Source: Calditrichia bacterium
Lineage (GTDB): Bacteria > Calditrichota > Calditrichia > JAJRVZ01
Direction: 5' to 3'
DNA length: 64,000 nt
Assembly (NCBI GenBank): GCA_963796965.1
Contig: CAWCNS010000016.1
Coordinates: 290,673 to 354,672 of the forward strand
A program made the position numbers and the translations under genes. Under the pieces are notes generated by a model. The model was given only the letters and a program-made list of their open reading frames with translations, was not told the DNA's origin and did not search any database. Positions 1 through 47,897 of the stretch are shown in pieces (the first letter of the stretch is position 1; the number at the start of each line of letters is the position of its first letter).

Positions 1-1732
1 ATTCATAATATCGCCCTTCTTTTTTAATTAACTCCTCATGGGTGCCCTGTTCAGCAATCTTACCCTCCTCGATCACCAAAATCTGGTCTGCCTGGCGAAT
101 GGTACTGAGTCTATGTGCAATGACAAAGGTTGTACGACCCTTCATTAAATTGGATAAACTCTCCTGAATAAAAGATTCACTTTCGGTGTCCAGATTGGAA
201 GTTGCTTCATCCAGGATCAGAATCATTGGATCAGCAAGTAGAGCACGGGCAATAGCCACACGTTGGCGTTGTCCGCCGGATAATTTTACGCCTCGTTCTC
301 CGATTAATGTATCCAAGCCATCTTCAAACCGGTCCGTAAATTCGCTCACATGGGCTGCTTTTACTGCAGATAGAAGTTCTTCTTCGCTTGCATCCGGCTT
401 AGGAAATAATATATTTTCTCTTATCGTACCTTCGAAGAGAAAGTCATCCTGCAGGACAACGCCTAATTTTGACCGATAACTGCCAAGTTTAATTTTTGCC
501 AAATCGATCCCATCGACAGAAACATAGCCTGAAAGGGGTTTTAAAAAGGAAGCGGCAATACCTGCAATGGTGGTTTTGCCGGAACCAGAGGTTCCAACAA
601 GAGCAGTGACAGAGCCGGCATCAGCTTTAAATGAAATATCTTTGAGGACTTCTTTATTCTCCTCATATGAAAAATTTACTTTTTGAAATGATATATTGCC
701 TTGCAATTCTGTTAGAACTTCACTCCTGTTGGGCTCCTCTCCTTCCTTTTCCAGACTTAACACTTCTTCCATTCTGTCCAATCCCGCAAAGGCCTCCGTA
801 ATCTGGCTGCCGATATTGCTCATTTGGACGATGGGTGCAATTAAGAATCCCAGATAAAGGGTAAAAGCAAAAAAGTCACCGACTGTCATTTGACCATCAA
901 GAATAAGGTTTCCACCAACACCCATAATTAAAACGCTGGCGACACCTAAGAGTAATGTTGCTGCACTGGTAATCAGGCTCGTAGAGGTAAGCGATTTTTT
1001 AACATTCTGAAATAGCCGATCAAGACCTTTTTCAAATGTGGTGATTTCCTGGTGTTCCGCATTAAAACCCTTTATAACTCTTATACCACCCAGCGATTCT
1101 GTCAAACGTCCTGTTACCTCTGCATTGATCTCACCCCGTTTTCTAAAAATGGGGCGGATATAGGCAAAGGCTTTTAGAGAAACCAAACCGAATAAAATGA
1201 GTGGCAATACGGCAAAAAGGGTCATACGGGCATTTATATGGATCAGAATTCCTAAAGAGATAATTGATGTGAGAACACCACCAAATAACTGGACAAGTCC
1301 TGTACCCACTAAATTTCTTACCCCTTCCACATCGGTCATGATTCTGGAAACCAATGCTCCGGATTTGGTGTTATCGAAAAAACTGATCGGTAAGTGGATG
1401 ATCTGTTTTTGCACCTGGGATCGTAATAAAGCAATAAGGTGCTGGGCTTCAACACTAAGCATACGGGTGAGAGCAAAAGATGTAATAGCCTGAATTGTTA
1501 CTGCCCCGCCGACCGCTGCTAATAGTAAATAAAGAAGTCCCCGATCTCCCTGACCGATTACATCATCAATGAGATATTTACTGGCACCGGGCAGTACGAG
1601 ACCGCTCAGGCGATTTATGACAATTAAAACTAATCCAATCAGGAGAAGATACTTTCTAGGTAGCAGGATCTCTTTTAGAACATATCTGATGCTGTTTGTG
1701 GAGAATTTTTTCTTTTTCTTATTATCATCCAT
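1..1732 (-). CDS. ABC transporter permease/ATP-binding protein (MsbA-like exporter), C-terminus truncated by window edge
   Basis: Reverse-strand translation of approx 60-300 gives ABC signature LSGGQRQR, Walker B ILILDEAT and H-loop IAHRL; ATG start at complement 1732; the reading frame runs off the window start, so the C-terminus is missing. Confidence 0.85.
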   Translation of the reverse strand, partial: MDDNKKKKKFSTNSIRYVLKEILLPRKYLLLIGLVLIVINRLSGLVLPGASKYLIDDVIGQGDRGLLYLLLAAVGGAVTIQAITSFALTRMLSVEAQHLIALLRSQVQKQIIHLPISFFDNTKSGALVSRIMTDVEGVRNLVGTGLVQLFGGVLTSIISLGILIHINARMTLFAVLPLILFGLVSLKAFAYIRPIFRKRGEINAEVTGRLTESLGGIRVIKGFNAEHQEITTFEKGLDRLFQNVKKSLTSTSLITSAATLLLGVASVLIMGVGGNLILDGQMTVGDFFAFTLYLGFLIAPIVQMSNIGSQITEAFAGLDRMEEVLSLEKEGEEPNRSEVLTELQGNISFQKVNFSYEENKEVLKDISFKADAGSVTALVGTSGSGKTTIAGIAASFLKPLSGYVSVDGIDLAKIKLGSYRSKLGVVLQDDFLFEGTIRENILFPKPDASEEELLSAVKAAHVSEFTDRFEDGLDTLIGERGVKLSGGQRQRVAIARALLADPMILILDEATSNLDTESESFIQESLSNLMKGRTTFVIAHRLSTIRQADQILVIEEGKIAEQGTHEELIKKEGRYYE

Positions 1733-1955
1733 TGAATTTATATTTCCCTTCTTTATACAATGTTTTAATGAAATTTTGATTTAATTCATTTATACTAAAC
1801 TCTAAAGACTATAATTTTATTTTGAAATGGGGGATAAAAGAAAAATATTTTTAATCACGGATTGACAGAGGATAAAGTAACGAATTATTTTAATTTTGTT
1901 TTTATAATGCTTCATATTATTCTGCAGTAAAAATATATATGCCGTGAAATTTCAC

Positions 1956-4900
1956 TCACTTTCTATTTTTACTCAGGGGTAGCTGTTTAAGTCCATCGAT
2001 GGGGAGTCGCAGCTTTTCAGCTAATTCTTTGATATCGGTGAGATCCTCTTCATTAACATAGTGAACGTCCAAAAGCCCACCTGCCTTGTAGCCTGTGCGG
2101 AGAAAATTCATTTCGTCAAGACTGAGACTCCAGCCTTCCAACCAATTGTTGAGATCACGTTGTTGATCGGGATTACCTGAAAAATTTACCAGAAGATCGA
2201 TATCACTTCCTGCCTGCGCTGTTGTGTTTTGTGTACTACCGACTAAATAGAGGGATTTTACACCAAATCTCTGAGCATCCAATTGTGCAGCCATCTTTTC
2301 AGCCATCTCACTCCGCCAACGCCAGTGCTTTCCTTTCTGCTCAACCATAAATTCCTGGATTTCGTCATCTGTAAATACAGAGGATGTGTAGGGACTTAAC
2401 ATTCCGACAGCTTTATCAATATCAGCATTCATTAGCACCCTTAAAACCATGCCATTTGTTGCTTCCGGAACTTCAATGACATGAATAGTATCACTAAGAT
2501 TTGAGTAGGCAGGTAAGAGTTCATAGAGTGTATTGGGTGATTTTAGCATGAAATCTTCATTAAAAATTACATTCTCTTCATCCGGATAAAGAGGAAGATA
2601 CCGAATCCCGGCTTCGACCAGATCCTGGAAAAAATGAGTGCCAAATGAGAGATCCGGAACATAGTTTCCCTTTTTTCGTGCGACTTCAATTAACATCGCC
2701 GTATTGTTTATGTCCGAATAGGTAACACTCACACCAAGTTTTATATCTCCACGGCTACCCCAGCGGCCAGGCCCGATGAGGATGAATTGACGTTTGGGTA
2801 AAATTTGATTCAATTTTCCTATTGCTTTCCCAATAGCTTTTAGGTCATTGATCGTCGAAATTTCGCTATATTTCTCGGGATTCACATAAACAATATGGGT
2901 GATATCCGGTACGGTTCCATTAGAAACGAATCTGTTTGCTGTAAATATAATTTTATCGGCTGATATATCTTTTGGTATAGGAGAGGGCGCATCATATTTT
3001 GAATAACTCTGAGGTCGGCTTTGCAAAAGATAAAAATCTTTACCATCTGATGCGAATTCTATATCTACCGGATAAGCAAGAGCATTTTGAAGGGTTTTAA
3101 GGATTATATGGATCTCTTTTATAAAATCCGTATTATTGATTAAGCCATCAAAAGTAAAGATTACATCTGCTTCACTAAAATCTGTCTGAAAGGCCATCGG
3201 TTTTTTGAGGTGATCATGCTCATATATAGACACAAGTTTTTCGATGGATGGATAATCATTCCCAAATTTTTTCAACAAGTCTTTTATCTTAATGGTTTCA
3301 AAGGCATTTGTTTTGAGATTTAGGACGTCAATCATTTGGGGTGAATAACGTGCCATATCTTCTACACTTACATTTGCCCGCAGGCCCGGTTGCCCGGCAG
3401 CAATCAATACAGGATAATCGGCACTTAGACGATCAACCGCACGTGTCCCTAACCCTGGTACGAGGCGCACTAATCCATCTTCGCGCTTAATACGTGGTGA
3501 CCAGCGAAATTCATTATTACTGAAAGCTACCCCAGCAAAAGCCGGAAAATAATAATCTCCTACCTGTTTTCCTACAACTTCCTGAATCATGATACCCATC
3601 TCTTCGTGATAATCGATTAACCCCCGTTCAGAACGATATTGCATCGGATCCGGTCCGAGTGTGGAAGCATAAACTTCGGCTACAGCATCTAAAAGCGCTT
3701 CAAGATTATCATTTTTTGTTCCCTGGTTAGCGAGAAACAAACTTTTATACTTACCTGAAAATGCTGATCCCAGCCGGTCCTCAAGAATACTGGAACTTCT
3801 AACGATTACAGGCGAATTTCCAAAATCATCGAGGGCCATCGATAAGCCCTGTACGATCTCCTGAGAGAAATGTGAATTTTTAAACAATTGAACAACATGG
3901 GGATATTCTTTGCTGACTTCATCAATGGGTTTATATTTTTGTTCTAGCATTTCCTCCAAATTATTATAATACATAAACTGAATCATAGCATCAGAGGATA
4001 TATACCAGGTTTTAGGCAGTTTTATGTTCTCAAAAATTTGGTTGTTTGATTTTTGACTTTGGAGAATTCGGTATGCAAGGATAACGCCTGCGGTTTTTCC
4101 ACCCAATTTGCCATGACTGCCGGGAGGGAAAATGAGATGAAGCAACAATTCGTGAAAATCACTTATCCTGATAAAGTTTTTTGCAATTACCACATATTCT
4201 AATTGATCCGTTAAGAACCGTCGGATAAGTCCTGCCCTTATACCGATGCGGGCCGATGGGGCTAATTCCAATCCTTCTTCAGGTGCTATCTGGAAATACC
4301 GTCTAACAGCTTTGTTGATATCTGTTAAGGAAGAGTTTATGTCTGAAGTTGCCCGAACAAGAAAACTGGTTTTATCCTGCTGGATCCATTTGCGAATATT
4401 ATTAAATATTTCTTCGTCCTGCATATTCTTTTCGGCAATCTCGAAAACTTTGTTACTCAGTTCATAGGAATCACCGAGAGCGCGGGTTTGGAGAGGACGA
4501 TTGGTGTCAGCTACAATATCTTCTTCGCCATATCGTAGTACAGGTAAAAATTGTTGCAGGATTTCTTCTGCTTCGGCAATCCCTTTCCATATTAGATGAT
4601 TTAGCATTTTTCTCGATATTCTAATAAAAACATCTGGATCAGTTTTTTTCAGAAGATCAAGTATAATTCGCCACTCACTCTCATTTTTATGTTCATTTGC
4701 ATCGTTACGAATACCCAATCCCTTGAATACACCACGCAAATTCTGATACATGATGTGATCACCAAGCCGTTTTGCAATAGTTTCTAAAACCCGCTTCTCT
4801 TCTTTTATAAAGGGGCCGTCATCCATTTCAGGCTTTTCTTTTAGATAGTAGATTTCTATTCGTCCGACGGCTTGTTTTTCAACAAAGATATTTTGAATAA

Positions 4901-5147
4901 GTACCCAGGCCGTGTCTTCAAAATCATGGCCTGTTATTAACTCATCCTGAAAGTAAATTTTTGCGCGGCAAATATCCGGATATTGCATCGCAGGAGGTAG
5001 GACTTCAGAAACTTTGATTAGTATACTTTTAAGATCTGACGTGGTGTTTTGTAAGATCTCCTCAACCTCGTATATGCAGTTTAACTCTTTGGCACGTTCC
5101 AGCAGGTTCCCAAATAATTTGTCGATGGGTTTTGATTTCTTAGCCAT
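1956..5147 (-). CDS. Large multidomain protein: PEP-synthase/PPDK-type ATP-binding domain plus C-terminal Pol-beta-type nucleotidyltransferase domain
   Basis: Intact 1063-aa ORF. Central region has PPDK_N-like motifs (GGKTAGVILA, VRSSSILEDRLGSAFSGKY); C-terminus has NTase motif LVGSTQNTTAQAGSDIDLLV. N-terminal approx 330 aa unassigned. Confidence 0.75.
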   Translation of the reverse strand: MAKKSKPIDKLFGNLLERAKELNCIYEVEEILQNTTSDLKSILIKVSEVLPPAMQYPDICRAKIYFQDELITGHDFEDTAWVLIQNIFVEKQAVGRIEIYYLKEKPEMDDGPFIKEEKRVLETIAKRLGDHIMYQNLRGVFKGLGIRNDANEHKNESEWRIILDLLKKTDPDVFIRISRKMLNHLIWKGIAEAEEILQQFLPVLRYGEEDIVADTNRPLQTRALGDSYELSNKVFEIAEKNMQDEEIFNNIRKWIQQDKTSFLVRATSDINSSLTDINKAVRRYFQIAPEEGLELAPSARIGIRAGLIRRFLTDQLEYVVIAKNFIRISDFHELLLHLIFPPGSHGKLGGKTAGVILAYRILQSQKSNNQIFENIKLPKTWYISSDAMIQFMYYNNLEEMLEQKYKPIDEVSKEYPHVVQLFKNSHFSQEIVQGLSMALDDFGNSPVIVRSSSILEDRLGSAFSGKYKSLFLANQGTKNDNLEALLDAVAEVYASTLGPDPMQYRSERGLIDYHEEMGIMIQEVVGKQVGDYYFPAFAGVAFSNNEFRWSPRIKREDGLVRLVPGLGTRAVDRLSADYPVLIAAGQPGLRANVSVEDMARYSPQMIDVLNLKTNAFETIKIKDLLKKFGNDYPSIEKLVSIYEHDHLKKPMAFQTDFSEADVIFTFDGLINNTDFIKEIHIILKTLQNALAYPVDIEFASDGKDFYLLQSRPQSYSKYDAPSPIPKDISADKIIFTANRFVSNGTVPDITHIVYVNPEKYSEISTINDLKAIGKAIGKLNQILPKRQFILIGPGRWGSRGDIKLGVSVTYSDINNTAMLIEVARKKGNYVPDLSFGTHFFQDLVEAGIRYLPLYPDEENVIFNEDFMLKSPNTLYELLPAYSNLSDTIHVIEVPEATNGMVLRVLMNADIDKAVGMLSPYTSSVFTDDEIQEFMVEQKGKHWRWRSEMAEKMAAQLDAQRFGVKSLYLVGSTQNTTAQAGSDIDLLVNFSGNPDQQRDLNNWLEGWSLSLDEMNFLRTGYKAGGLLDVHYVNEEDLTDIKELAEKLRLPIDGLKQLPLSKNRK

Positions 5148-5404
5148 AGGTTGATCCGTTATATAATTAACAGTTTTTAACCAAGATCCTACTCAATCTT
5201 CTGTATAAATTATGTTTGTCCGTCGTCTGCTAATCTGTAAAGAGGTCCCGGTGGGACGTCTCTACAAACAAGTGACAGAAATTAAACCTTGTGAACCAGA
5301 TGAATTATTATTATTGAAAAAAAATATGCACCTAAATTAAAACATCCGCTGTCAAATAGCCAACGGATGTTTTAATAATACTGTGTATAATAAAAACAAA
5401 TATC

Positions 5405-6691
5405 CTATACCCAGCCACGATCTTTGCATGCCTGAGCAACCCGGCTAATGGCAATCACATAGGCAGCATCACGCATATATAGTTTACGTTTCGTTGCCAG
5501 ATCATTGACGGCATGAAAAGCTGAAGTCATTTTTTCATCTAACCGGGTAAGAACTTCATCTTTTCCCCAGAAATAATTCATATTACTCTGCACCTGTTCA
5601 AAATAACTACAGGTTACACCACCGGCATTTGCGAGGAAATCAGGAATTACATATATCTTTTTTTCTTCCAAAAAATTATCTGCTTCAGGCGTTGTTGGTC
5701 CATTCGCACCTTCAGCAATAATTTTCACTTTTTTATTTATCATATGAACATTATCACCACTTATCTGATTTTCCAATGCACAAGGCATCAGAATATCCAC
5801 TTCCTGTTTCAACCAGTCATCAGCGGGGAGTTGTTCATAACCCAATTCTAATGCTTTATCTTTCTCAATACCGCCAAAGCGATCGGTTATCTGCAATAAT
5901 TCATCTAAATCAACGCCTGTATTTCTACGATAGGTGTACGCAGTCTGGTCATTTTGATCCCAGCAGGAGACCGCAATCACTTTTCCTCCGAGCTCTGCAT
6001 AAAGCCGGATTGCATATTGGGCAACATTTCCAAATCCCTGTACGCTGGCAATGGTATCCTTGGGGTTAATATTCATATCTTTTAGTGCTTCCCGCAATGT
6101 ATATATAAGGCCATAGCCAGTCGCTTCGGTTCGGCCCAATGAACCTCCCATACCAACAGGTTTACCTGTAATAAACCCGGGGAACTTTGATCCCTGGACT
6201 GCCTCAAATTCATCCAGCATCCACAGCATATGCTGTGCATTGGTCATTACATCAGGGGCCGGAACATCATTTATCGGACCAACATTTTTGGCCATCTGTC
6301 GAACCCAACCACGACAAATCTGCTCCTGTTCTTTTAAACTTAGATTATGCGGATCGCAAATAACACCGCCTTTGCTACCGCCGAGGGGAATGTCAACAAC
6401 GGCGCATTTCCAGGTCATCCAGGTTGCTAGTGCACGGACTGTATCAATCGTTTCCTGAGGATGAAAACGGATACCACCTTTTCCAGGTCCACGTGCATCG
6501 TTATGTTGTACCCGGAAACCCCGGTAGACTTTTACCGAGCCATCATCCATGTGGACCGGTATACTGAAATGGTATTCACGCAGAGGATTGCGTAGCAACT
6601 CTCGGATGCCTGCGTCCAGATTAATCAGATCGGCAACTTTATCAAATTGAGCCTGCGCCATTTCAAAAGGATTAAATGATTTTCCAGCCAT
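5405..6691 (-). CDS. gdhA: NAD(P)-specific glutamate dehydrogenase
   Basis: Glu/Leu/Phe/Val dehydrogenase motifs (catalytic PLGGSKGG, Rossmann GFGNVAQY). Start placed at MAGKSF (complement 6691) where an AAAGGA RBS precedes; the track ORF extends 12 codons further upstream. Confidence 0.85.
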   Translation of the reverse strand: MAGKSFNPFEMAQAQFDKVADLINLDAGIRELLRNPLREYHFSIPVHMDDGSVKVYRGFRVQHNDARGPGKGGIRFHPQETIDTVRALATWMTWKCAVVDIPLGGSKGGVICDPHNLSLKEQEQICRGWVRQMAKNVGPINDVPAPDVMTNAQHMLWMLDEFEAVQGSKFPGFITGKPVGMGGSLGRTEATGYGLIYTLREALKDMNINPKDTIASVQGFGNVAQYAIRLYAELGGKVIAVSCWDQNDQTAYTYRRNTGVDLDELLQITDRFGGIEKDKALELGYEQLPADDWLKQEVDILMPCALENQISGDNVHMINKKVKIIAEGANGPTTPEADNFLEEKKIYVIPDFLANAGGVTCSYFEQVQSNMNYFWGKDEVLTRLDEKMTSAFHAVNDLATKRKLYMRDAAYVIAISRVAQACKDRGWV

Positions 6692-7044
6692 GGTATAAGT
6701 TCCTTTCAAAAAAAAAGGTTGAATCAATTAGATAGCGTTTCCACTTAAATTTCAGGGTGGAAGATCCCGACAATTTAAATAATAGTTCATTCAAATTGCA
6801 ATAGAATATTGCTTTATTATTCACCGCCCGGGCAATTCAAATATCCCTGATATTTTACTTGTTCATTAAATCACATGCAAGGCCTTTTATGGTGTTTTTT
6901 TGTGTTACATCCTTTATATTTTGCCCGAGTTGTTTGGGTGATTGGGATTTAGAGGCACATACCAATATTACAAAAATAAAAGTAGAATTAATTCAGAAAA
7001 AATACGATATTTAAAATATCGACAATAATTCAAGGAACTTAATT

Positions 7045-7626
7045 ATGCAAAACATTTCCTATGCCGGTCAATTTCGTCCAGCTGTAAAACGCCAAGCGTT
7101 GGTTTATGATTTAATGATGGTTCTTGGGGCATCCATATTTATTGCCTTAAGTGCACAAATTGCTATTCCTGTGCCATTTAGTCCTGTACCGATCACTTTA
7201 CAGACCTTTGCTGTGCTTCTAACCGGCGCTTTTATAGGAAGCCGATTGGGAATCCTTGCGGTGCTTGCTTACTTGCTGGAGGGAAGTCTTGGAATTCCCG
7301 TTTTTGCCCAGGCCCATGCGGGATTAATTCATTTGGTCGGGCCCACTGGTGGCTATTTGCTAGGTTTTGTTCCGGCTGTTTTTATTACGGGCCTTCTCGT
7401 TGAGCGAGGGAATCAGATCAGCGTACTCTGGTCTCTATTCATAATGACTATTGGAACAGCAATTATTTTCCTCTTTGGTCTTACCTGGTTATCCCTGGTA
7501 TTTAATAGTTCAGAGGCACTCTTAATGGGTCTTTATCCTTACATTCCAGGTGCGATAATAAAAATTGTTGCAGCTGCCTTGATATTGGTAGGCAGTGATA
7601 AAATTATTAAATCAAAATTTGAGTAA
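7045..7626 (+). CDS. bioY: BioY family biotin transporter S-component
   Basis: 193-aa polytopic membrane protein with the BioY-type conserved core (IPVPFSPVPITLQTFAVLLTG). Confidence 0.75.
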   Translation: MQNISYAGQFRPAVKRQALVYDLMMVLGASIFIALSAQIAIPVPFSPVPITLQTFAVLLTGAFIGSRLGILAVLAYLLEGSLGIPVFAQAHAGLIHLVGPTGGYLLGFVPAVFITGLLVERGNQISVLWSLFIMTIGTAIIFLFGLTWLSLVFNSSEALLMGLYPYIPGAIIKIVAAALILVGSDKIIKSKFE

Positions 7627-7872
7627 CCCCTTCCAGCCCTTTATATGATGATTATTAGAATCGTTTTAATTCGTTCATGAAATTCCATCGGTTGCAAAAC
7701 ATCTGACTTTTTATAAGTTATATATAGTGTGAACAGTTGGGCCAAGACATTATTGACTCTAACTCCAAAGTTTATAGAAGAAACCAGAAAATACTTTTTG
7801 TATTAATATTAACTTTTCTATTTCGCACCATTTTATCTAAAACCAGACAGAAAAAATCAATTGGAGCAAAAC

Positions 7873-8313
7873 ATGAAAATATTTCTTTTTTTTATACTCA
7901 TCGTTCAATTAATATCTGCAATATCTCTGGCACAAAATTCAACGATCACAAGTGGTGATTTAACAGTTATCGTTAATGGTCTGGAGAGTGAAGAGGGTAA
8001 AGTTATGATAGCCCTTAGTCATAGTCAGGAAGATTATGACACAAAGGGCGAACCTTTTCGTGGTGGAATAGCTGACATTAGCGATTTGACAGCGATCTGG
8101 ACTTTTAAAAATATTCCAAATGGAACCTATGCCCTCAAAGTATTTCATGATGAAGATGAGGATGAGGAACTGGATACGAACTTTATCGGAATTCCATCTG
8201 AGGATTATGGATTTTCAAACGATGCCAAAGGAAGTTTTGGACCAGCAAGTTGGGAGGATGCAAAATTTCTGTTTGAAGTGAAATCTGATACGGTTGTGAT
8301 TAATGTAGAATGA
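7873..8313 (+). CDS. Secreted DUF2141-like protein
   Basis: Signal peptide (MKIFLFFILIVQLISAISLAQ) followed by a DUF2141-like domain; ATG at 7873 preferred over the TTG at 7861. Confidence 0.6.
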   Translation: MKIFLFFILIVQLISAISLAQNSTITSGDLTVIVNGLESEEGKVMIALSHSQEDYDTKGEPFRGGIADISDLTAIWTFKNIPNGTYALKVFHDEDEDEELDTNFIGIPSEDYGFSNDAKGSFGPASWEDAKFLFEVKSDTVVINVE

Positions 8314-8444
8314 AATAAATATTCAATAATCAACATGGAATACTCAATGTTCAAGTAGGAGCGGACCCGTGTGTCCGCCCTGTCGATGTATCATGATATA
8401 TTAAATATTTGGTACGGAATGTCCAATTTTTGGGAATTAAGAGA

Positions 8445-10046
8445 ATGGAAAATCAAGACAAGAAATATGATGTAATTATCATCGGTTCGGGGATGAGCGC
8501 CTTATCTTGTGCAAGCATTCTCTCTCAAATGTACAAGAAGAAGGTGTTAATCCTGGAGCAGCATGGGAAAATCGGTGGTTTTACGCATTCCTTTAAACGA
8601 AAAGCAAAATATGAATGGGATGTGGGATTGCACTATGTTGGGGGAATGCGTAAGGGTGAGATGGATCGGTCCGCATTTGACTATATAACGCGAGGGCAGC
8701 TGAAGTGGCAGAAAATGCCCGATCCCTACGATACATTTATGTATCCAGGTCTGACCTTTAAAGCGAGAGGTGGGGCAGATAATCTTCAAAATGATCTCAT
8801 TGATAAATTTCCTGCAGAAGAAAGAAGTATCAGGCAATATTTTAAGGACGTCAAAATCATCCTCCATTGGTTTGCCAGGTATAATAAAAGTCTAATCTTG
8901 CCTGGTTGGATGAAATTTATATCCTGGTTGATAAAAAGGCCGGGAATGGTTAAAGCAACCATGTTAACCGGGGATTATCTTAACCAAAATTTTGAAGATC
9001 AGCGTTTAAAAGCTATCCTGGCATCACAATGGGGTGATTACGGATTACCACCCGGAAAAAGCGCTCTCGTGATTCATATGCTGATTGCACATCATTATTT
9101 TGAAGGCGGCTATTACCCGGTTGGGGGATCAAAAAAGATAGCCGAAACTATCACACCCGTAATAGAAGATGCAGGGGGTACCCTACTTACCCGTCACCGT
9201 GTAGAAGAAATTATTGTCAAAAATGGTAAAGCAACAGGTGTGCGTTGTTTGGCAGGAACAGGGGAGGCATTAGAAGAAAAAACTATTTTCGCTAATAATA
9301 TAATCTCTGCTGCCGGTGCTTTTATAACTTATAACAAACTATTACCCGGGAAATATGCAAAGACGATGAGTGAAAAATTGAAACCTTTTCTACCGGGTCT
9401 CAGTAATGTCTCACTCTTTATTGGATTAAAAGAAGATCCAGAAAAATTGGGTTTTAAAGGTGGGAATTTTTGGATATATGATTCTTTTGACCATGATAAT
9501 ATATTTAATAACAGGAATGATTTGATAAAGGGGAAGGTTAGGGCGGCCTATGTTTCATTTCCCTCAAAAAAAAATCCACAAGCATTGTCACATACAATGG
9601 AAGTGCTTGTTTTTGTTGATTATGAACCCTTTGCGAACTGGGAAAAACAACCCGTAAAAAAACGTGATGAAACTTATACTCAGATAAAGGACAAAATTTC
9701 TGATGGAATTATCTCTTATATCGAAGATAGATTTGCCGGATTTAAAGAATTAATAGACTTCTACGAATTGGGTACACCATTGACGAATGTCCATTATACA
9801 GCCCATATGTTTGGTAATGTATATGGCATTCCTGGTATTCCGGAACGGTACCGATCTAATGTTGTTAGTTATCGTACCCCTGTTAAAAATTTGTATCTGA
9901 CGGGGGCCGATACAGCTGGCCATGGTATTTCAGGAACCCTGATGTCTGGTTTGTTGACCTGTGCTGTTATGATGGGTCTCCCTTCCCATTTGATAAAAAT
10001 ATTTGCAGGAGTGCAAAAATTCAGCAAAAAACTCGATAATGGATAA
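8445..10046 (+). CDS. FAD/NAD(P)-dependent oxidoreductase, phytoene-desaturase/retinol-saturase-like family
   Basis: N-terminal dinucleotide-binding motif DVIIIGSGMSALSCA; about 530 aa, typical of CrtI-like amine-oxidase-fold enzymes. Start at 8445 preferred over TTG 8409. Confidence 0.75.
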   Translation: MENQDKKYDVIIIGSGMSALSCASILSQMYKKKVLILEQHGKIGGFTHSFKRKAKYEWDVGLHYVGGMRKGEMDRSAFDYITRGQLKWQKMPDPYDTFMYPGLTFKARGGADNLQNDLIDKFPAEERSIRQYFKDVKIILHWFARYNKSLILPGWMKFISWLIKRPGMVKATMLTGDYLNQNFEDQRLKAILASQWGDYGLPPGKSALVIHMLIAHHYFEGGYYPVGGSKKIAETITPVIEDAGGTLLTRHRVEEIIVKNGKATGVRCLAGTGEALEEKTIFANNIISAAGAFITYNKLLPGKYAKTMSEKLKPFLPGLSNVSLFIGLKEDPEKLGFKGGNFWIYDSFDHDNIFNNRNDLIKGKVRAAYVSFPSKKNPQALSHTMEVLVFVDYEPFANWEKQPVKKRDETYTQIKDKISDGIISYIEDRFAGFKELIDFYELGTPLTNVHYTAHMFGNVYGIPGIPERYRSNVVSYRTPVKNLYLTGADTAGHGISGTLMSGLLTCAVMMGLPSHLIKIFAGVQKFSKKLDNG

Positions 10047-10051
10047 GTGAT

Positions 10052-10687
10052 ATGACAGTTATTGATCTCTCGCATACAATCTCACCTGAAATGCCTGTTT
10101 ATCCCGGGACAGAACCGCCGGTATTTGATATCCCTGTTTCAATAGAGAAAGATGGCTTTTTAGAGAAAAAAATTACCTTATTTTCACATACAGGAACACA
10201 TGTGGATGCCCCTGCCCACATGTGTGAAGGCGCCCTTACGCTAGACAAAATGAATGTCGATAATTTTGTGGGAGAAGGATTTATTATTGATGTTTATGGG
10301 CTACAGAACACGACTATAGAAAAAAGAGCACTTCTTCCATTTAAGGATAAATTGCAAAACACAGATTTTGTTCTCTTCTATTCGGGATGGAGTGAGAACT
10401 GGGGGAGCGAGAAGTATTTTACTGAATACCCGGTTCTTAGTGAAGAAGCTGCTGAATGGATCTGTGAATTTAATTTGAAAGGTATTGGTATTGATATGAT
10501 TTCCGTTGATCCTGTAGATTCACCCAATATGCAGGTTCACCAGGCTTTATTTAAACATAATCTTATCATTATTGAGAATCTCACCAATCTTGCTGCCATA
10601 ATAAAGAATGAATTTACCTTTTTATGTTTACCAATAAGAATAGATGAGGCTGATGGAGCACCAACGCGCGCAATTGCCATCTTTTAA
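10052..10687 (+). CDS. Cyclase family protein (kynurenine-formamidase-like metal hydrolase)
   Basis: HTGTHVDAPAHM motif typical of the putative cyclase / arylformamidase family. Confidence 0.7.
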   Translation: MTVIDLSHTISPEMPVYPGTEPPVFDIPVSIEKDGFLEKKITLFSHTGTHVDAPAHMCEGALTLDKMNVDNFVGEGFIIDVYGLQNTTIEKRALLPFKDKLQNTDFVLFYSGWSENWGSEKYFTEYPVLSEEAAEWICEFNLKGIGIDMISVDPVDSPNMQVHQALFKHNLIIIENLTNLAAIIKNEFTFLCLPIRIDEADGAPTRAIAIF

Positions 10688-10931
10688 TGGGTAATATATC
10701 AAGGTCCGATTAAAATTTTTAAAATTCTTCAAATAAAATTCAAAAAAATATAGTTGTATTCTTTGTCTTTTGTAAATCGACTTTCTAAATTGTATATCTG
10801 ATTTTAAAATTAAATTGTTTCACGCAATGGCGCAAAGAGCAAAAAGCATAGCAAGGTTGGATTTTCTCATATGCTCTCTGCTCCATGCGCTTTGCTTTTT
10901 GTATCTTTGTTAAATATTATATACTAAATAG

Positions 10932-12200
<1,269 letters not shown>

Positions 12201-14927: not shown

Positions 14928-15117
14928 TCTTCTATCGGCCAATAAATCTGAGAATTATTGTGCGTATAAGATTTCTATTTGAAAACAATTTTACCCGCAA
15001 GACTATCCAGGCTTTTAAATTATTTCTATTCCGAAAATTAATATAATCTCACTGAAAACATAAATATTCTTTCCTGCCTGCCGATAATAACTCTAATCTA
15101 TCATATTATAATCGGCC

Positions 15118-18100
15118 ATGACAAAATCTAAAACACCATATTTTAAATGTCTCAGTATGAATACAATCATGTTTACCCTAATGCTGATTCATATGATCTC
15201 CACAATAGCTAGTGCACAGCGATATCCTTTCCGGACGTATAATGTTGCGGAGGGCATTTCCCAGTCCCAGATCAATGATATCATCCAGGATTATGATGGA
15301 TATCTCTGGTTTGCATCAGCAGAGGGATTAACACGTTTTAACGGTCATGAATTTAAAACATTTGGCAAATCAGATGGGTTAGCCGGCTCATTGATAAATA
15401 AAATTTTGCTGGACAGTGAGGGCAATATGTGGCTGGGATACCGTGATAAAGGTGTCTCAAAGTATCTTGTTAAAGAAAAAATATATATACCGGTCTTCCT
15501 TCCTGCAGGTCTTGAGACAGCGGATATTGTAGACATTATAGAGACTGTTGATGGATCATTATTATTTGCCACAGATGATGATGGCGTGTTGATATACCAT
15601 GAAGGGATATGGAAATTAATAGATGATGATGAGGGCCTCCCGTCGAATAAAGTTTTTTCATTATGCTCTGTCAACGATAAAATCTGGATAGGAACCGCGA
15701 GAGGTCTTTGCATATTAAGCGGGGATCAATTTGAAGTTGACACAACGTCATATAAAAGTAACTTTACCCGCTTTGCAGATGAGGAAATTTCTGCATTGAT
15801 GTGTGATCATGAAGAAAATATTTGGATAAGTACAGCAGGATCGGGAATTTTCCGCTTCATCCCCAATTCCGAGACGAATGGAGAGGATACATTATTAAAT
15901 GTATCTGAATTACTAAACCTTCCTCAAATATTCCCCCAATGTATTATTGAGGATCAGGAGCAGAACATTTGGGTCGGGACAAAAGAAAAGGGTGTTATCA
16001 GGTTTGGTAGTGATATTTTTGGTAAAGATTCAGTATTTGTGATCATTAATAAACAAAATGGGCTCGACCGTGTGGATATCTCAACCATATTTCAGGATAG
16101 TGAAGGTTCGTTCTGGTTTGGATCTAATGGAGGAGGTGTATATCAGTATAGGGGAAATTGTTTTGAAAAGTACGGTGAAATGGAAGGATTACTCGACGAT
16201 GTTATTTGGGCAATATTTGAAGACCAACAAGGTGGATTTTGGTTCGGTTCTGAAAATGGACTGACCCATGTTAAGAATGGGGAAGATTGGCAAGATTTTT
16301 ATTATTTCTCATCAGATCAGTGGCAGGGTAGTAGAAGTATTCTGGATATTGATGCGGATTTAAATGGAAATCTTTGGTTGGTTGTGCATAATTCGGGTAT
16401 ACGCGTATTAAATTCAAGGACCAAATTGTTCAGTAAAGTACCGGAGTTGGAAGATAAAAAGGTTATCTGTATTGAAAGAGGAAATGCTAACGATTTCTGG
16501 TTCGGCACTTTTGACAATGGCACTTTCTACATGGATCTTGATTCAGGAATTGTGATTAATTATAAAGCTGATGATGGATTGGCGAGCAATACTGTTTACG
16601 ATATTATCAAATCATCAAAAGGGGACATATGGTTTGCAACAAATAATGCCGGTATAACGAAATACGATGGATCAAAATTTATTAATTATGGTAGGAGTTC
16701 CACATTTGAAAATAGTTCTGTCCTTACCCTGGCCGAAAATTCCAAAGGGGATATCTGGATTGGTACAGAGGGTGAAGGCCTGTTCCGGTTTGATGGACAG
16801 AAATTTGAGAGTTATTCTCAAAAGTATGGCTTGTGGAAGGACGATATCTATTCTGTAGTTTGCGATGATCAGGACAATGTATTTATTGGTACGCGAAGAG
16901 GAATCGAAAAATTTAGTCCAAGTGATAGTCTGACAAAGAAATTCGGAAAAGTTGAAGGTTTTTCAGCAGTTGAGACCAATCAAAACTCAGTGTATAAAGA
17001 TGCTGCGGGTCGCCTCTGGTTCGGTACTATTCAGGGTGCGATAAGATATAATCCGGCAAGTGAGCGGCGAAATAATGTACCGCCCAAAACATATATCGAT
17101 AATGTCCGTGTATTTCTACAGGATCAGCCTTTACCTGTTGACAGTTCATATGTGCATACCGATAATCATTTAACATTCAATTATACAGGTCTTAGTTTTG
17201 TAGCCCCGGAAGATATAAAATACAGCTATTTACTGGAAGGTTTGGATCGCGATTGGTCCCCCTTGTCTTCAGAGCGGTACGCTACCTATGCAAATCTATC
17301 ACCTGGTGAGTATACGTTTAAAGTAAAATCCATTAATAGTGAGTCCATCTGGAGTAAGGAACCCGCGTCTTATAAATTTTCAATAAGGACACCTTTTTGG
17401 CAAAAGAGCTGGTTCTATGTGCTTTTAGTTTTTAGCATAGGTGCGATAATTTATGGATCCCATCGATATCATGTTCGCAAGATTTACAAGAACAATTTGC
17501 TCTTAGAAAAGATGGTTCATTCACGGACCAGTGATCTGGTTACAGAGAAGGAAAAAGCCCAGGAAGCTTTTAATGCACTCAGGGAAAGTGAACAAAAGTT
17601 AAAACAGGTGACGGAAAGCATAAATGCTTATCTTTGGAGTTTGAATATTGATGATTCAGGCAACCTGGAGAATACATTCATTACAGATACCTTTTTTAAG
17701 ATTGTTGGTTATGATCGTCATGAATTCCCACAAGCAAAAAATAAAATGGAAAGGTTTTTGAAAATTGTCCACGAGGATGACAGACAGTATATTAGGGAAT
17801 CATTTATACGGGCAAAAAAAGGTGAGACAATTAACCTGAATTATCGAATCGTTAGCAAAGAACAAGAATACCACTGGCATTATATTCATGCTTTTCCGAT
17901 AGAAGACGTCCAGGGGAAAGTTAATCTTATCCATGGTGTGGGATTTGATATTACGAACCGTAAACTGGCCGAAGAAGCATTGCGTAAAAGCGAAGAAAAA
18001 TATGCAACATTTTTGCGCTATAGTACAGAAGCCATCTGGTGTGTTGATCTTAAAGAGCCAATTCCGGTAACATTACCCGTCGAAGATCAAATTGAGCGAA

Positions 18101-19920
18101 TTCTCCACGATGCTTACCTTTCCGATTGTAACGATGCGATGGCCAATTTGTATGGATATAATTTAGCCATTGAGATCATTGGATTACCTCTTAGTGCCGG
18201 GTTGTTAAGGGATGTGCCGGAAAATAGACAATACCTCCATCAATTCATTGAATCCGGTTATCGTTTAAGAAATGCAGAATTTAAAGAGCTCGATAATTCG
18301 GGAAACGTAAAGATTATGTTAGTTGGTTTTGTTGGGATTCTAGAAAAGGGTCATTTGGTAAGGGCCTGGGGAATGCAGCGTGATATTACCGAACAAAGAC
18401 GTGCTGAAGAAGCGCTGAGAGAAAGTGAGGAGATGTACCGCAGGCTCATCGAGCGTTCACCTGATACAATTATTGTACACAGTGAAGGAAAAATTGATTA
18501 TATCAATTCGGCAGGAGTAAAACTTTATGGGGGAAAGCATGTATCAGATTTCCTGGGGCATAAGTTGAAAGAATTCTCTCATTCTGATTTTTGGGAGTTA
18601 GGGCAGATGCGAATTCAGCAAATATATCAGGAAAAAAGAGAAGTTAGCCTGATGGAACAAAAAATGGTTCGTCTTGATGGTACTGAATTTGACGTAGAGG
18701 TTATGGGCGCACCAATAATTTATAATGGCAGGGCCAGTGGACAATCAATTGTACGTGACATCACTGAACGCAAAAAAATGGAAGCAGAAATACAAAAAGG
18801 TCAAAAACTGGATTCGGTAGGAATTCTGGCAGGAGGTATTGCTCACGATTTTAATAATATTCTTACAGCAATTTTAGGAAATATATCTCTTGGGAAAATG
18901 TATACAGAGTCCCATGGAGAAGCGAATGCCGTATTAAGTGAAGCTGAGAGGGCAACTCTGCGAGCCAAAGATCTAACGCAACAATTGCTTACTTTTTCTA
19001 AGGGTGGGGCACCGGTAAAAGAAACCACATCAATATATGAGATTATAAAAGATTCTACAAATTTTGTACTACGCGGATCAAATATTGATGCTGACTATGA
19101 GTGTCCTTCAAATTTATGGTCTGTGGATGTAGATGCTGCCCAAATTAGTCAGGTCATACAAAACCTGATTATTAACGCCGAACAAGCTATGCCAGATGGT
19201 AAGAGAATATTAATTAGACTAGAAAATAAAGAGCTGAAAAAACCAATCTTTCCAAACATGCAACCGGGAAAATTTGTTGAGGTCAGAATAATAGATAAGG
19301 GGATTGGAATATCTGATGAACATCTGAGCAAAATATTTGATCCTTATTTTACAACGAAGCAAAAAGGTAGTGGTCTTGGTTTGGCCACCTCGTATTCCAT
19401 AATCATCCGTCATGGTGGCCATATCAATATTACCTCTCAAATGGGGAAGGGAACAGAGGTCCTCATATATATTCCGGCTTCAGATAAACAGGTGCCTGAG
19501 AAAAAAATTGATGAAGATAAGATCCTTTCAGGCAATGGGCGAATACTTGTAATGGATGATGAGAGGTTGTTGCTCCAACTGTCAGAACAGTTTCTCAGCC
19601 ATCTTGGATATCAGGTGACTACTGTAACCGACGGCGAAAATGCCATAAAAGAATATAGGAGAGCGAGTCAGGAAGGTTCACCATTTTCATTGGTGATTAT
19701 GGATTTAACGATACCGGGAGGAATGGGAGGTAAGGAAACCATCAAGGAATTAAGGAAAATTGATCCTAATGTAAGGGCAGTTGTTTCAAGTGGTTATTCA
19801 AATGATCCGGTGATGGCAAACTATATGGAATTTGGATTTCAGGCAGTTTTGACCAAACCCTACAAAATTGAAACCATGAGTTCTGTAATCGCTGAGGTTG
19901 TAAATGAGCATTCAGCATAA
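15118..19920 (+). CDS. Hybrid sensor histidine kinase/response regulator with periplasmic two-component-regulator propeller and Y_Y_Y domains
   Basis: Intact 1600-aa ORF: signal/TM start, repeated propeller-type repeats, TM helix, PAS-like regions, HisKA H-box (IAHDFNNIL), HATPase_c (GSGLGL), C-terminal receiver (LVIMDLTIPG). Confidence 0.85.
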   Translation: MTKSKTPYFKCLSMNTIMFTLMLIHMISTIASAQRYPFRTYNVAEGISQSQINDIIQDYDGYLWFASAEGLTRFNGHEFKTFGKSDGLAGSLINKILLDSEGNMWLGYRDKGVSKYLVKEKIYIPVFLPAGLETADIVDIIETVDGSLLFATDDDGVLIYHEGIWKLIDDDEGLPSNKVFSLCSVNDKIWIGTARGLCILSGDQFEVDTTSYKSNFTRFADEEISALMCDHEENIWISTAGSGIFRFIPNSETNGEDTLLNVSELLNLPQIFPQCIIEDQEQNIWVGTKEKGVIRFGSDIFGKDSVFVIINKQNGLDRVDISTIFQDSEGSFWFGSNGGGVYQYRGNCFEKYGEMEGLLDDVIWAIFEDQQGGFWFGSENGLTHVKNGEDWQDFYYFSSDQWQGSRSILDIDADLNGNLWLVVHNSGIRVLNSRTKLFSKVPELEDKKVICIERGNANDFWFGTFDNGTFYMDLDSGIVINYKADDGLASNTVYDIIKSSKGDIWFATNNAGITKYDGSKFINYGRSSTFENSSVLTLAENSKGDIWIGTEGEGLFRFDGQKFESYSQKYGLWKDDIYSVVCDDQDNVFIGTRRGIEKFSPSDSLTKKFGKVEGFSAVETNQNSVYKDAAGRLWFGTIQGAIRYNPASERRNNVPPKTYIDNVRVFLQDQPLPVDSSYVHTDNHLTFNYTGLSFVAPEDIKYSYLLEGLDRDWSPLSSERYATYANLSPGEYTFKVKSINSESIWSKEPASYKFSIRTPFWQKSWFYVLLVFSIGAIIYGSHRYHVRKIYKNNLLLEKMVHSRTSDLVTEKEKAQEAFNALRESEQKLKQVTESINAYLWSLNIDDSGNLENTFITDTFFKIVGYDRHEFPQAKNKMERFLKIVHEDDRQYIRESFIRAKKGETINLNYRIVSKEQEYHWHYIHAFPIEDVQGKVNLIHGVGFDITNRKLAEEALRKSEEKYATFLRYSTEAIWCVDLKEPIPVTLPVEDQIERILHDAYLSDCNDAMANLYGYNLAIEIIGLPLSAGLLRDVPENRQYLHQFIESGYRLRNAEFKELDNSGNVKIMLVGFVGILEKGHLVRAWGMQRDITEQRRAEEALRESEEMYRRLIERSPDTIIVHSEGKIDYINSAGVKLYGGKHVSDFLGHKLKEFSHSDFWELGQMRIQQIYQEKREVSLMEQKMVRLDGTEFDVEVMGAPIIYNGRASGQSIVRDITERKKMEAEIQKGQKLDSVGILAGGIAHDFNNILTAILGNISLGKMYTESHGEANAVLSEAERATLRAKDLTQQLLTFSKGGAPVKETTSIYEIIKDSTNFVLRGSNIDADYECPSNLWSVDVDAAQISQVIQNLIINAEQAMPDGKRILIRLENKELKKPIFPNMQPGKFVEVRIIDKGIGISDEHLSKIFDPYFTTKQKGSGLGLATSYSIIIRHGGHINITSQMGKGTEVLIYIPASDKQVPEKKIDEDKILSGNGRILVMDDERLLLQLSEQFLSHLGYQVTTVTDGENAIKEYRRASQEGSPFSLVIMDLTIPGGMGGKETIKELRKIDPNVRAVVSSGYSNDPVMANYMEFGFQAVLTKPYKIETMSSVIAEVVNEHSA

Positions 19921-23006: not shown

Positions 23007-23221
23007 ATCTGTAGAATTCTTCGAGGCTTTGCCTTTGGGTTTACTATTTCTCCCTATCCTTTAGGAGAGGGTTGGGTAGAGGTAAATAGATGAAATTTTG
23101 TTTTTCGATATTTGTGTCGAAATATAACTGGCGAAATACTACAATAGGCATCAGGTATGGTCAGTTTTAAAGAATTTCTTTATTCAAATTGACCTGATAG
23201 TTATTTCAATAATTTAAACAT

Positions 23222-24458
23222 ATGATAACACTTATAAAAAACATCGGACAACTGTATAGTGTTGATACCAAGGGTGGTTATGGCGATTATATAAATTATA
23301 GTGACTGTGCAATCGTCCTTGAGAATGACATTATCAGCGATATCTATCAGAATCCTCAACCAAAAATAAGGAATGCTGATCGAACAATCGATGCCGGAGG
23401 GAACACAGTTCTCCCGGGTTTTGTCGATGCCCACACCCATCCGGTTTTTTGGCAGACACGGGAATCTGAATTCATTATGCGTATAAGAGGCATGTCCTAT
23501 GAGGAGATTGCTAAAGCAGGAGGTGGGATCAGGAACAGCTCACGCAGTTTTCAGAAAGCTTCTGAGGCGCAAATCAAAGAGGTTACCCGGGACCGAATCC
23601 GGACTTTTCTTGAATATGGTACAACAACGATTGAAGCTGAAAAGTGGTTATGGCTTGTCTTTGAAAAGTGAGTTAAAAGCATTGCAGATTATCGCTGATC
23701 TCAACAAGGAGCAGGCATTGGAGATGATCCCCACATTTTTGGGTGCCCATGAAGTACCGGATGAATATCGAAACAACCGCAATGAATATATCAATCTGGT
23801 GGTTAATAAAATGATTCCGGAAGTGGCTGAAAAAAAACTGGCCCGCTATTGTGATGTATTCTGCGAAAAAGGTGTTTTTACCCTCACTGAGACCAAATTG
23901 ATTCTTCAAAAGGCTTTGGAACACGGACTCCTGGGAAGAATTCATGCTGATGAATTACATGCCTTTGGAGCAGCTGAGTCTGCAGCTGAAATGAGTACAG
24001 TTACGGCCGATCATCTTGTAAAAACTTCTGACACAGGTATCCGGATGATGGCGGAGGCAGGTGTGATCCCTGTACTATTACCTGCCACTACTTTCTTTCT
24101 AAGGAAAGACGAATATGCACCTGCAAAAAAAATGCTTTCCGCCGGTTGTGAGGTAGCTCTTGCTACAGACTTTAATCCGGGTAGTTCAATGACACAAAGC
24201 ATGCAACTTGTTTGGACTATTGGGGCTCTTAAACTTGGTATGTTGCCCGGAGAATTGTTATGGGCAACTACCTATATTCCGGCAAAGAGCTTACAAATGG
24301 GTCAACAGGTTGGCAGTATTGAAAGAGGAAAACAAGCAGACCTGATTCTCCTGAATATCCCAAACCTTGATTTTCTGGCTTATCATATGGGAATAAATCA
24401 TGTGATGTATACAATTAAAAAGGGATTGATTGTATACAAGCAAGATAATCTGCTATAG
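23222..24458 (+). CDS. hutI: Imidazolonepropionase-like amidohydrolase (HutI family), reading frame interrupted by an apparent 1-bp insertion near 23637
   Basis: Frame 1 carries VDAHTHPVF ... GGGI ... EYGTTTIE; frame +1 continues with KSGYGL ... FLGAHEVPDEY ... ATDFNPGSS. Removing one base near 23637 restores TTIEVKSGYGL, which matches the HutI consensus. Confidence 0.75.
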
Positions 24459-28197: not shown

Positions 28198-28198
28198 A

Positions 28199-39664: not shown

Positions 39665-39668
39665 ACGC

Positions 39669-40061
39669 ATGTCCTATTTACTTATTTTACCATGTTTGAT
39701 GTTGCACTCATCCTTACAACAACTATCTGCCAGCGAAAAGCCTGAAACGCTTGATGCTTATGTTAAAAAGTTTGCTGTAGGAGAGAAGAAAAAAAGTTCT
39801 GATACGTGGTTCTCGCCTGATAAAGGTTATCATCTGGTTGGTAGTATGATTGGTACAACATTTTTCGGTCAAATAAGCCAACATGGCTTTAGTTCAAATT
39901 CGCAAGAATCCCGGTATATTGGAGCCGGGATAACTTTCTCTTTGGGATTGGCTAAAGAAATTTATGATTGCGGAAAGCCAAATAATATTTTTTCATGGAA
40001 GGATCTCACTGCAAATTGTGTTGGAATTATGATAGGTATTGTTCTATTAGGGGTTCATTGA
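39669..40061 (+). CDS. Hypothetical small lipoprotein-like protein (possibly DUF2279/YfiM-like)
   Basis: Start moved to the internal ATG at 39669 (MSYLLILPCLML signal-like segment); weak resemblance around WFSPDKGYH. Confidence 0.4.
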   Translation: MSYLLILPCLMLHSSLQQLSASEKPETLDAYVKKFAVGEKKKSSDTWFSPDKGYHLVGSMIGTTFFGQISQHGFSSNSQESRYIGAGITFSLGLAKEIYDCGKPNNIFSWKDLTANCVGIMIGIVLLGVH

Positions 40062-41109: not shown

Positions 41110-41128
41110 CAATATTGGTAGACTAATT

Positions 41129-47875: not shown

Positions 47876-47897
47876 TAATATGAATAGAACAGGAACT

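Follow-up and report, generated by a model that had tools for sequence, protein, structure and literature searches.

The locus described here raises the question of what a dikinase-like protein does next to a glutamate dehydrogenase (GDH). It lies in a Calditrichia bacterium (assembly GCA_963796965.1, contig CAWCNS010000016.1), within the stretch of 64,000 nucleotides from position 290,673 to position 354,672 that was analyzed and is referred to below as the window. The target gene encodes a protein of 1063 amino acids (aa) that combines an ATP-binding domain of the pyruvate phosphate dikinase (PPDK) type with a C-terminal nucleotidyltransferase domain. This protein is probably a previously unrecognized regulator of GDH, because its gene sits directly after gdh in almost every genome examined. 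A more specific form of this proposal, a metabolite-sensing, ATP-driven phosphohistidine enzyme that regulates GDH post-translationally, is put forward tentatively, at somewhat less than an even chance. The two genes of the pair are located in the window as follows.

Positions 1956..5147, reverse strand: whole target gene, encoding the 1063-aa GAF-like / helical / PPDK_N ATP-grasp / domain X / minimal nucleotidyltransferase protein
Positions 5405..6691, reverse strand: glutamate dehydrogenase gene, directly upstream of the target gene on the same strand, 428 aa, on record as a called gene

The product of the window gdh contains the Pfam domains ELFV_dehydrog_N and ELFV_dehydrog and matches the Thermococcus GDH 1euz with an E value of 3e-125. 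Gene context was counted in the best 80 of more than 567 relatives from a scan of one genome per species; these 80 proteins are about 50 to 67% identical over the full length, and GDH adjacency could be judged in the 76 species genomes with enough upstream DNA. A GDH gene lies on the same strand no more than 700 bp upstream in 62 of the 76 genomes; in 5 the distance is up to 2.1 kb, in 4 the gene is adjacent but divergent, and in 1 the arrangement is unusual, so that GDH is adjacent in 72 of the 76 informative genomes in total. The GDH orthologues beside these long-clade genes are 61 to 79% identical. Unsupervised clustering of all open reading frames (ORFs) in the 80 loci yields two recurrent real neighbours, GDH (73 loci) and a metallophosphoesterase (36 to 37 loci). 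In the first three homologous loci viewed, from Calditrichota and Ignavibacteria, the gdh pair is kept and the remaining neighbours are all different; the pair is also present in a genome labelled Caldithrix abyssi. An earlier note on this DNA had named gdhA upstream and an ABC exporter downstream as the neighbourhood of the gene, of which gdhA is conserved across genomes and the exporter is not. No neighbour other than gdh is strongly conserved, and gdh gives the best hint of what the protein does.

A second set of 82 metagenomic loci covers a short clade of ∼765-aa relatives, which carry fewer domains, together with more distant relatives. Here, GDH is the sole recurrent real neighbour: 23 loci have it directly upstream, 6 have it adjacent but oriented differently, and in 2 it lies between two paralogues. 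The short-clade GDH is of a different subtype, with ∼48 to 51% identity to the window GDH. The pairing is thus found in two clades that differ in both domain complement and GDH subtype, which argues for a functional link to the core of ATP-grasp and domain X rather than for inherited synteny.

The family to which the target belongs is large and spans at least 10 phyla. A word-indexed search returns 4957 proteins at E values of ≤1e-3, and an exhaustive representative search returns 968 clusters of 50% identity at E values of ≤1e-30. The nearest relatives of the window protein come from metagenome-assembled genomes of Calditrichia, full-length orthologues are 54 to 87% identical, and an identical protein (P0001) is encoded on a 369-kb public contig. 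The best 80 species relatives belong to Calditrichota, Ignavibacteria, Melioribacter, Zixibacteria, Acidobacteriota (Terriglobia, Aminicenantes, and Thermoanaerobaculia), Planctomycetota, Fermentibacteria, Eisenbacteria, Cloacimonadota, Delongbacteria, Spirochaetes, and Bacteroidota, while the ∼765-aa clade is common in Deltaproteobacteria/Thermodesulfobacteriota. The architectures of the family are the following.

∼1060 aa: full-length form
∼1630 aa: double-module form
∼915 aa: form without the nucleotidyltransferase
∼765 aa: form without the GAF-like domain and without the nucleotidyltransferase
∼590 aa: possible form of ATP-grasp and domain X alone

At least one record of the ∼590-aa type, P0203, may be a truncated gene call, as its nearest relatives are all 690 to 824 aa long. 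The ∼1630-aa form occurs in 47 of the 80 species and carries an extra N-terminal unit of PPDK_N ATP-grasp and domain X ahead of the GAF-like domain. In examples of this form (L004, 8001-12902; P0080, P0094, and P0118), the extra module has its own GFGRWGS and SQGSHFFHN motifs, with two putative His-carrier domains per chain. Source annotations name members of the family "pyruvate, water dikinase" or "pyruvate, phosphate dikinase"; further database names are "PEP synthase" and "PEP/pyruvate-binding domain-containing protein."

The ORF at 1956-5147 starts with ATG and contains 1063 codons and zero internal stops, in agreement with its earlier description as intact. Its product is divided into five domains, with one candidate phospho-acceptor residue, all encoded on the reverse strand.

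Positions 4698..5114, reverse strand: GAF-like sensor domain assigned by fold, residues ∼12-150 (helix, helix, four strands, and long helix in the AlphaFold2 model)
Positions 4113..4679, reverse strand: all-helical domain, residues 157-345 (AlphaFold2 helices 158-336)
Positions 2970..4109, reverse strand: PPDK_N-type ATP-grasp, residues 347-726 (Pfam PF01326, Foldseek, and invariant motif residues)
Positions 2373..2969, reverse strand: domain X, residues 727-925, conserved and without a Pfam family
Positions 2634..2636, reverse strand: codon of His838, the candidate phospho-acceptor, in the motif SFGTHFFQD (codon verified)
Positions 1998..2330, reverse strand: minimal (MNT-type) Pol-beta nucleotidyltransferase, residues ∼940-1050 (Pfam and Foldseek)

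The ATP-grasp is the most readily recognized of these domains. Pfam PPDK_N (PF01326) covers residues 347-726 with an E value of 1.3e-55 and 189 bits against a cut-off of 27, from profile position 3 to 322 of 328, and the motifs quoted in the earlier note for this domain are present and conserved. GGK349-351, R450-SSS-x-x-ED457, D695-x-E697, and Q709-x-R711 correspond one by one to GGKNAS, AVRSSATAED, MDIEWA, and VQARP of the phosphoenolpyruvate (PEP) synthase PpsA from Escherichia coli, and across 82 orthologues, K351, R450, D695, E697, Q709, and R711 do not vary. With their neighbouring residues, three of these motifs read VR450SSS-x-x-ED, VD695-I-E697-FA, and LLQ709-S-R711-P. As every nucleotide- and Mg-binding motif is intact, the domain should bind ATP. 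A full-length AlphaFold2 model with a predicted local distance difference test (pLDDT) score of 76 was searched against the PDB with Foldseek, and its ATP-grasp matches rifampin phosphotransferase (RPH) (5hv3, E value of 1e-8), HpeI (9goj), and PPDK. Neither PEP-utilizers (PF00391) nor PEP-utilizers_C (PF02896) has a Pfam match in the target protein. The NCBIfam models for PEP synthase, PPDK, RPH, and PigC/RedH match the ATP-grasp part only, with 10 to 51 bits against cut-offs of 456 to 1700 (PEP synthase/PPDK equivalogs, 10 to 51 bits against 456 to 883; RPH models, 14 to 27 bits against 999 to 1700). Sequence searches of the PDB with the target return only fragments of the ATP-grasp or the nucleotidyltransferase, and literature searches return nothing on the family, its architecture, or the gdh pairing. 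The earlier remark that no characterized enzyme of this architecture was known therefore stands; no paper, NCBIfam equivalog, or solved structure for the family was found, and domain X and the helical domain lie outside any Pfam family.

The earlier note described residues 710-900 as a linker and recognized no phosphohistidine swivel domain, pointing to the C-terminal nucleotidyltransferase instead. A missing swivel domain replaced by the nucleotidyltransferase is not supported, as the alignment and a domain model show a conserved folded domain rather than a linker: the ATP-grasp is followed by a domain of ∼200 aa with an invariant His and a fold resembling a swivelling beta/beta/alpha arrangement. 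This domain X (residues 727-925) is the most conserved part of the protein and contains the motifs GPGRWGSRGD and SFGTHFFQDLVE. In an alignment of 52 copies that are 20 to 40% identical to the window copy, including distant clades and the paralogous copy, R795, G797, E821, S834, G836, H838, and F839 are invariant. Modelled alone, the domain reaches a pLDDT of 94.4, and a helix that follows a strand and a loop (123-130 in the numbering of the domain model) begins with His838. The fold class and the invariant His at the N terminus of a helix are compatible with the PEP-utilizers phosphohistidine domain, and domain X occupies the position in which PPDK and PEP synthase carry that domain. It always starts straight after the ATP-grasp, at residue 727 in the target, and the two are duplicated as one unit at the N terminus of the ∼1630-aa relatives. 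Because of this fixed place and joint duplication, domain X is regarded with moderate confidence as a phosphohistidine swivel domain of divergent sequence whose acceptor is His838, an assignment based on weak fold similarity and the logic of conservation. Proteins with a PEP-utilizers domain, which would have allowed a better profile for this comparison, are absent from the 1.9 Mb of fetched loci.

The N-terminal ∼330 aa, left unassigned in the earlier note, are resolved by AlphaFold2 and Foldseek into two domains. The first, for which Pfam gives no match, resembles GAF domains by fold, with Foldseek matches to the GAF domain of NifA (8jrc, probability of 1.0, TM-target of 0.51), the GAF domains of PDE5/6, CodY, and 1vhm; it is missing from the ∼765-aa clade. 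The second, the helical domain of residues 157-345, matches nothing in Pfam and, by Foldseek, nothing in the PDB. Its profile detects the long clade and most, but not all, of the tested ∼765-aa relatives: it is found in short-clade proteins like P0369 but gives a weak signal or none with the more distant L142, L145, L161, and L165.

The C-terminal nucleotidyltransferase proposed from the sequence is borne out. NTP_transf_2 (PF01909) matches residues 959-999 with 27.2 bits (27 to 28.5 bits over the Pfam scans) against a cut-off of 21, with overlapping Pfam matches to Polbeta and MTPAP-like. The signature G970-S971, D982-I-D984, and D1027 is invariant or at least 90% conserved in the 82 orthologues and shows the hG[GS]-x(9-13)-DxD pattern with a third acidic residue on a minimal alpha-beta fold. 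The best structural matches are MNT/MntA antitoxins (8xeh, 7bxo, and 8xeo) and 2rff, with probabilities of 0.97 to 0.99; 7bxo and 8xeh share the GS...DxD...D catalytic set with residues ∼940-1050 of the target. MntA antitoxins of type VII toxin-antitoxin systems AMPylate a protein, the HepT toxin. In contrast to these HEPN-MNT systems, in which a stand-alone MNT is encoded next to a HEPN gene, the nucleotidyltransferase of the target is fused to a 930-aa enzyme without a HEPN flank, and the target reaches 16.3 bits with the NCBIfam MntA equivalog, whose cut-off is 60. The nucleotidyltransferase is missing from whole clades of the family and is therefore an accessory domain. The two-step scheme of phosphorylation and nucleotidylation suggested earlier is possible.

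Taken together with the gene context, these domains suggest a multistep mechanism for the target. The ATP-grasp would bind ATP and phosphorylate His838 of domain X, by analogy with PPDK, PEP synthase, RPH, and VadK. The phosphorylated enzyme would then act on the GDH encoded with it, as gene context suggests, through either phosphoryl transfer or phosphorylation-dependent binding, and this action would tune glutamate catabolism or ammonium assimilation. The GAF-like domain, judging by its fold, may gate the reaction, with 2-oxoglutarate, glutamine, another amino acid, or a similar metabolite as the signal. The nucleotidyltransferase might add a second modification, for example, transfer of a nucleoside monophosphate (NMP) to either GDH or the enzyme itself, or might mediate dimerization.

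Several described systems make such a regulator of GDH a reasonable proposal, namely, VadK, EI-Ntr, and NifA. VadK (Rv1127c) from Mycobacterium tuberculosis is a truncated PPDK without the TIM barrel that autophosphorylates on its swivel His, binds methylcitrate-cycle enzymes, and tunes flux (PMC13400623). The GAF domain of EI-Ntr senses glutamine (PMC4848567), and that of NifA binds 2-oxoglutarate (PMC3854208). VadK shares with the target a PPDK-type ATP-grasp, the absence of the TIM barrel, and a proposed post-translational control of an enzyme of central metabolism, through autophosphorylation and direct interaction; the His-carrier domain that follows its grasp would have its counterpart in domain X. 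It differs in that its His domain is a canonical PEP-utilizers domain, whereas domain X is unrecognizable by sequence, in the lack of GAF, helical, and nucleotidyltransferase domains, and in its partners, which are methylcitrate-cycle enzymes and not GDH. With PRK05878, the only sequence proxy for VadK, the target reaches 10.7 bits where the cut-off is 456, and VadK is therefore no close relative of the target. PEP synthase and PPDK share the N-terminal PPDK_N ATP-grasp with its K, R, D/E, and Q-x-R motifs; their C-terminal PEP/pyruvate TIM barrel (PF02896) is absent from the target.

EI-Ntr (PtsP) resembles the target in its N-terminal GAF sensor, which in the target is predicted from fold, and couples it to a swivel domain whose phosphohistidine hands phosphate on to a protein; the system is linked to nitrogen/carbon status (PMC4848567). 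EI-Ntr is driven by PEP via a PEP-utilizers_C TIM barrel, in contrast to the target with its ATP-grasp and no TIM barrel, and a partner like HPr or NPr does not recur among the conserved neighbours of the target family. GlnE and GlnD are nucleotidyltransferases of the Pol-beta superfamily that covalently regulate proteins of nitrogen assimilation and may serve as a conceptual model of how a nucleotidyltransferase could work as a partner of GDH. The nucleotidyltransferase of the target is of the minimal MNT type, the modification of GDH is hypothetical, and neither GlnE (PF03710) nor GlnD_UR_UTase (PF08335) has a Pfam match in the target at E values up to 1. VadK, EI-Ntr, and GlnE are no more than functional analogues, and none of the membership tests placed the target in a known family. 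Apart from domain X and the helical domain, all parts of the protein are of known domain kinds, and the concept of a regulatory kinase derived from a dikinase has one published example.

A number of observations weigh against phosphohistidine-based control of GDH. GDH is a candidate substrate from gene context only, and its adjacency could instead reflect shared metabolism or co-regulation. Distant members of the family, with 37 to 44% identity to the short clade, mostly have no GDH neighbour, and no fusion with GDH occurs among 389 sampled proteins. For domain X, a Pfam scan of the 52 diverse copies gives no match to PF00391, hhalign against PpsA from E. coli alone and against the swivel regions of PpsA and PtsI gives a probability of 0.1 (with a very thin template alignment), and Foldseek of the domain model against the PDB gives no match below an E value of 0.1. 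An insertion carried by the GDHs paired with the long clade contains no invariant Ser, Thr, Tyr, or His and was therefore rejected as a diagnostic modification site. Finally, the 257-bp spacer between gdh and the target gene contains a strong hairpin.

Positions 5328..5381, reverse strand: hairpin followed by a U-rich tract, 24 nt past the gdh stop codon

This hairpin was spotted by eye and then folded; it has a perfect stem of 16 to 21 bp and an RNA folding energy of -23.5 kcal/mol (z = -6.7 against shuffles). Its loop of 9 nt explains why it escaped the consensus terminator scan, and the sigma-70 and terminator consensus scans of the spacer are uninformative. The hairpin could be a terminator or an attenuator, and its position makes separate transcription or regulated read-through of the two genes possible.

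The strongest of the rival explanations, although still unlikely, is a small-molecule dikinase in which phosphorylated His838 phosphorylates a metabolite of glutamate or 2-oxoglutarate metabolism, with the binding site in either the helical domain or domain X (C-terminal half). This metabolite would be made or consumed by GDH, and the nucleotidyltransferase could nucleotidylate the product. PEP synthase, rifampin phosphotransferase, HpeHI, PigC, and glucan-water dikinase are small-molecule or glucan dikinases. With the exception of VadK, the named characterized relatives of the ATP-grasp act on small molecules or glucans (for HpeHI, see PMC12167813; otherwise established knowledge). RPH and HpeI are the closest structural neighbours of the target, and RPH/HpeHI (5hv1/5hv3 and 9goj) give the best ATP-grasp matches in Foldseek, with E values of 1e-8 to 7e-6, and use the swivel-His mechanism (PMC12167813). 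The structural alignment with RPH is restricted to the ATP-grasp: RPH has a large substrate-binding domain between grasp and swivel, whereas domain X follows the grasp directly in the target, and HpeHI is a two-component enzyme. The helical domain, a candidate substrate site, is conserved in the long clade and in most of the tested short-clade relatives, and adjacency is common among pathway genes. Against a small-molecule substrate, the target contains none of the known substrate-binding domains of dikinases (TIM barrel or rifampin-binding domain), and no conserved neighbour would use a phosphorylated product, as GDH and the phosphoesterase alone recur. A GAF sensor and an MNT-type nucleotidyltransferase are also more typical of regulatory enzymes.

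The phosphoesterase bears on a further alternative. A calcineurin-like metallophosphoesterase of ∼285 aa (PF00149, E value of 2e-7) is encoded tail-to-tail downstream of the family gene in 37 of the 80 long-clade genomes, usually 3 to 60 bp past its stop codon, with the following examples.

L055, positions 5519-6379, reverse strand: metallophosphoesterase
L009, positions 9189-10022, reverse strand: metallophosphoesterase

Among the forms with enough downstream DNA, it accompanies 31 of 42 with the double module and 6 of 26 with a single module; it is found at none of the 82 loci of relatives without the nucleotidyltransferase and has no match in the PDB or NCBIfam. This distribution fits, speculatively, the reversal of a modification linked to the nucleotidyltransferase. 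It has also been considered as a sign that the nucleotidyltransferase makes a nucleotide-derived messenger or modifies itself, with the ATP-grasp and domain X as a regulatory or energy-sensing module, the convergent metallophosphoesterase degrading the product, and GDH adjacency reflecting co-regulation under nitrogen/carbon status. The retained catalytic residues of the nucleotidyltransferase and a similarity to Adenyl_cycl_N (E values of 0.013 to 0.05) speak for such an activity, but the similarity is weak and far below the cut-off, and the minimal MNT fold of ∼110 aa lacks the extra domains of cyclases and CD-NTases. As the nucleotidyltransferase is dispensable in large GDH-linked clades and the window locus has no such phosphoesterase, this explanation is improbable. 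An ordinary gluconeogenic PEP synthase or PPDK, as the database names would have it, and a defence-system MNT protein, as matches to the PADLOC PDC-S09 models would suggest, are effectively excluded, the former by the absent TIM barrel, the absent PF00391, and scores far below the equivalog cut-offs and the latter by a match of only ∼45 residues confined to the nucleotidyltransferase and by a gdh-adjacent position that is stable across phyla, unlike that of mobile defence islands, with no HEPN gene on either flank.

The GDHs paired with the long clade (window and L004-L084) show the insertion mentioned above, of 5 residues with the consensus S-C-W-D-Q-x-D-Q-T-S-Y-T-F/Y-R-K, which in the window corresponds to 5924-5965 on the reverse strand and GDH residues 243-256. 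The same enzymes have a second insertion of 3 to 4 residues, and the two are located in the NAD(P)-binding domain, immediately past its second Rossmann strand. Neither is present in the Thermococcus GDH 1euz or in the GDHs paired with short-clade proteins like P0369. The GDHs of L142, L145, and L161 have both insertions, although their partner proteins lack the nucleotidyltransferase, and this wider occurrence rules out the insertion as a mark of nucleotidyltransferase-bearing partners. In L142 and L145, the GDH gene lies between two paralogues of ∼780 aa (order X - GDH - X'), and in L118 (3-7253), one GDH gene lies between a split long-form gene set and a short-clade paralogue. The deltaproteobacterial locus L086 (3066-5819 and 8802-11148) contains a short-clade gene with GlnE upstream in place of GDH, a pair of GltD-like oxidoreductases downstream, and carAB nearby; this is again nitrogen metabolism, in a nonrecurrent arrangement. 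GlnE and CarA were rejected as recurrent neighbours, as they occur in this single genome only (L086 and its duplicate L087), and GltD was rejected because GltD-like genes are sporadic.

In the window, the genes around the target (1-12200) are intact, including both flanking genes, gdh and the ABC exporter, of which the latter starts at 1732 and runs past the window edge. Of the window, 77% lies within ORFs of 150 aa or more, the longest of which comprises 1602 aa (15112-19917, forward strand). Pairs of long ORFs on the forward strand overlap in different frames at 23213-24455, 27424-29437, 38804-40058, 41105-43475, and 46538-49187 and could be the frame-broken genes to which the earlier note refers or ordinary overlapping genes.

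The post-translational control of bacterial GDH is poorly understood next to that of glutamine synthetase. If the target protein modifies or binds GDH, a new regulatory layer would exist at the branch point of carbon and nitrogen metabolism, in organisms that dominate in the environment but have received little study: Acidobacteriota, Ignavibacteria, Calditrichota, Planctomycetota, and sulfate-reducing Deltaproteobacteria. The pairing with gdh is near-universal in one clade of the family and frequent in another that carries fewer domains, and domain X is a new conserved domain with an invariant His outside current domain libraries. If true, control of GDH by this family would extend the finding on VadK, in that dikinases would have given rise to regulatory kinases on more than one occasion. 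In its fullest and more doubtful form, the proposal is that of a covalent-modification switch for GDH in at least 10 phyla, consisting of a GAF-gated phosphohistidine relay, GlnE-like NMP transfer in the long forms, and reversal by the metallophosphoesterase. Such a switch, if true, would be the GDH counterpart of the cycle in which GlnE adenylylates glutamine synthetase.

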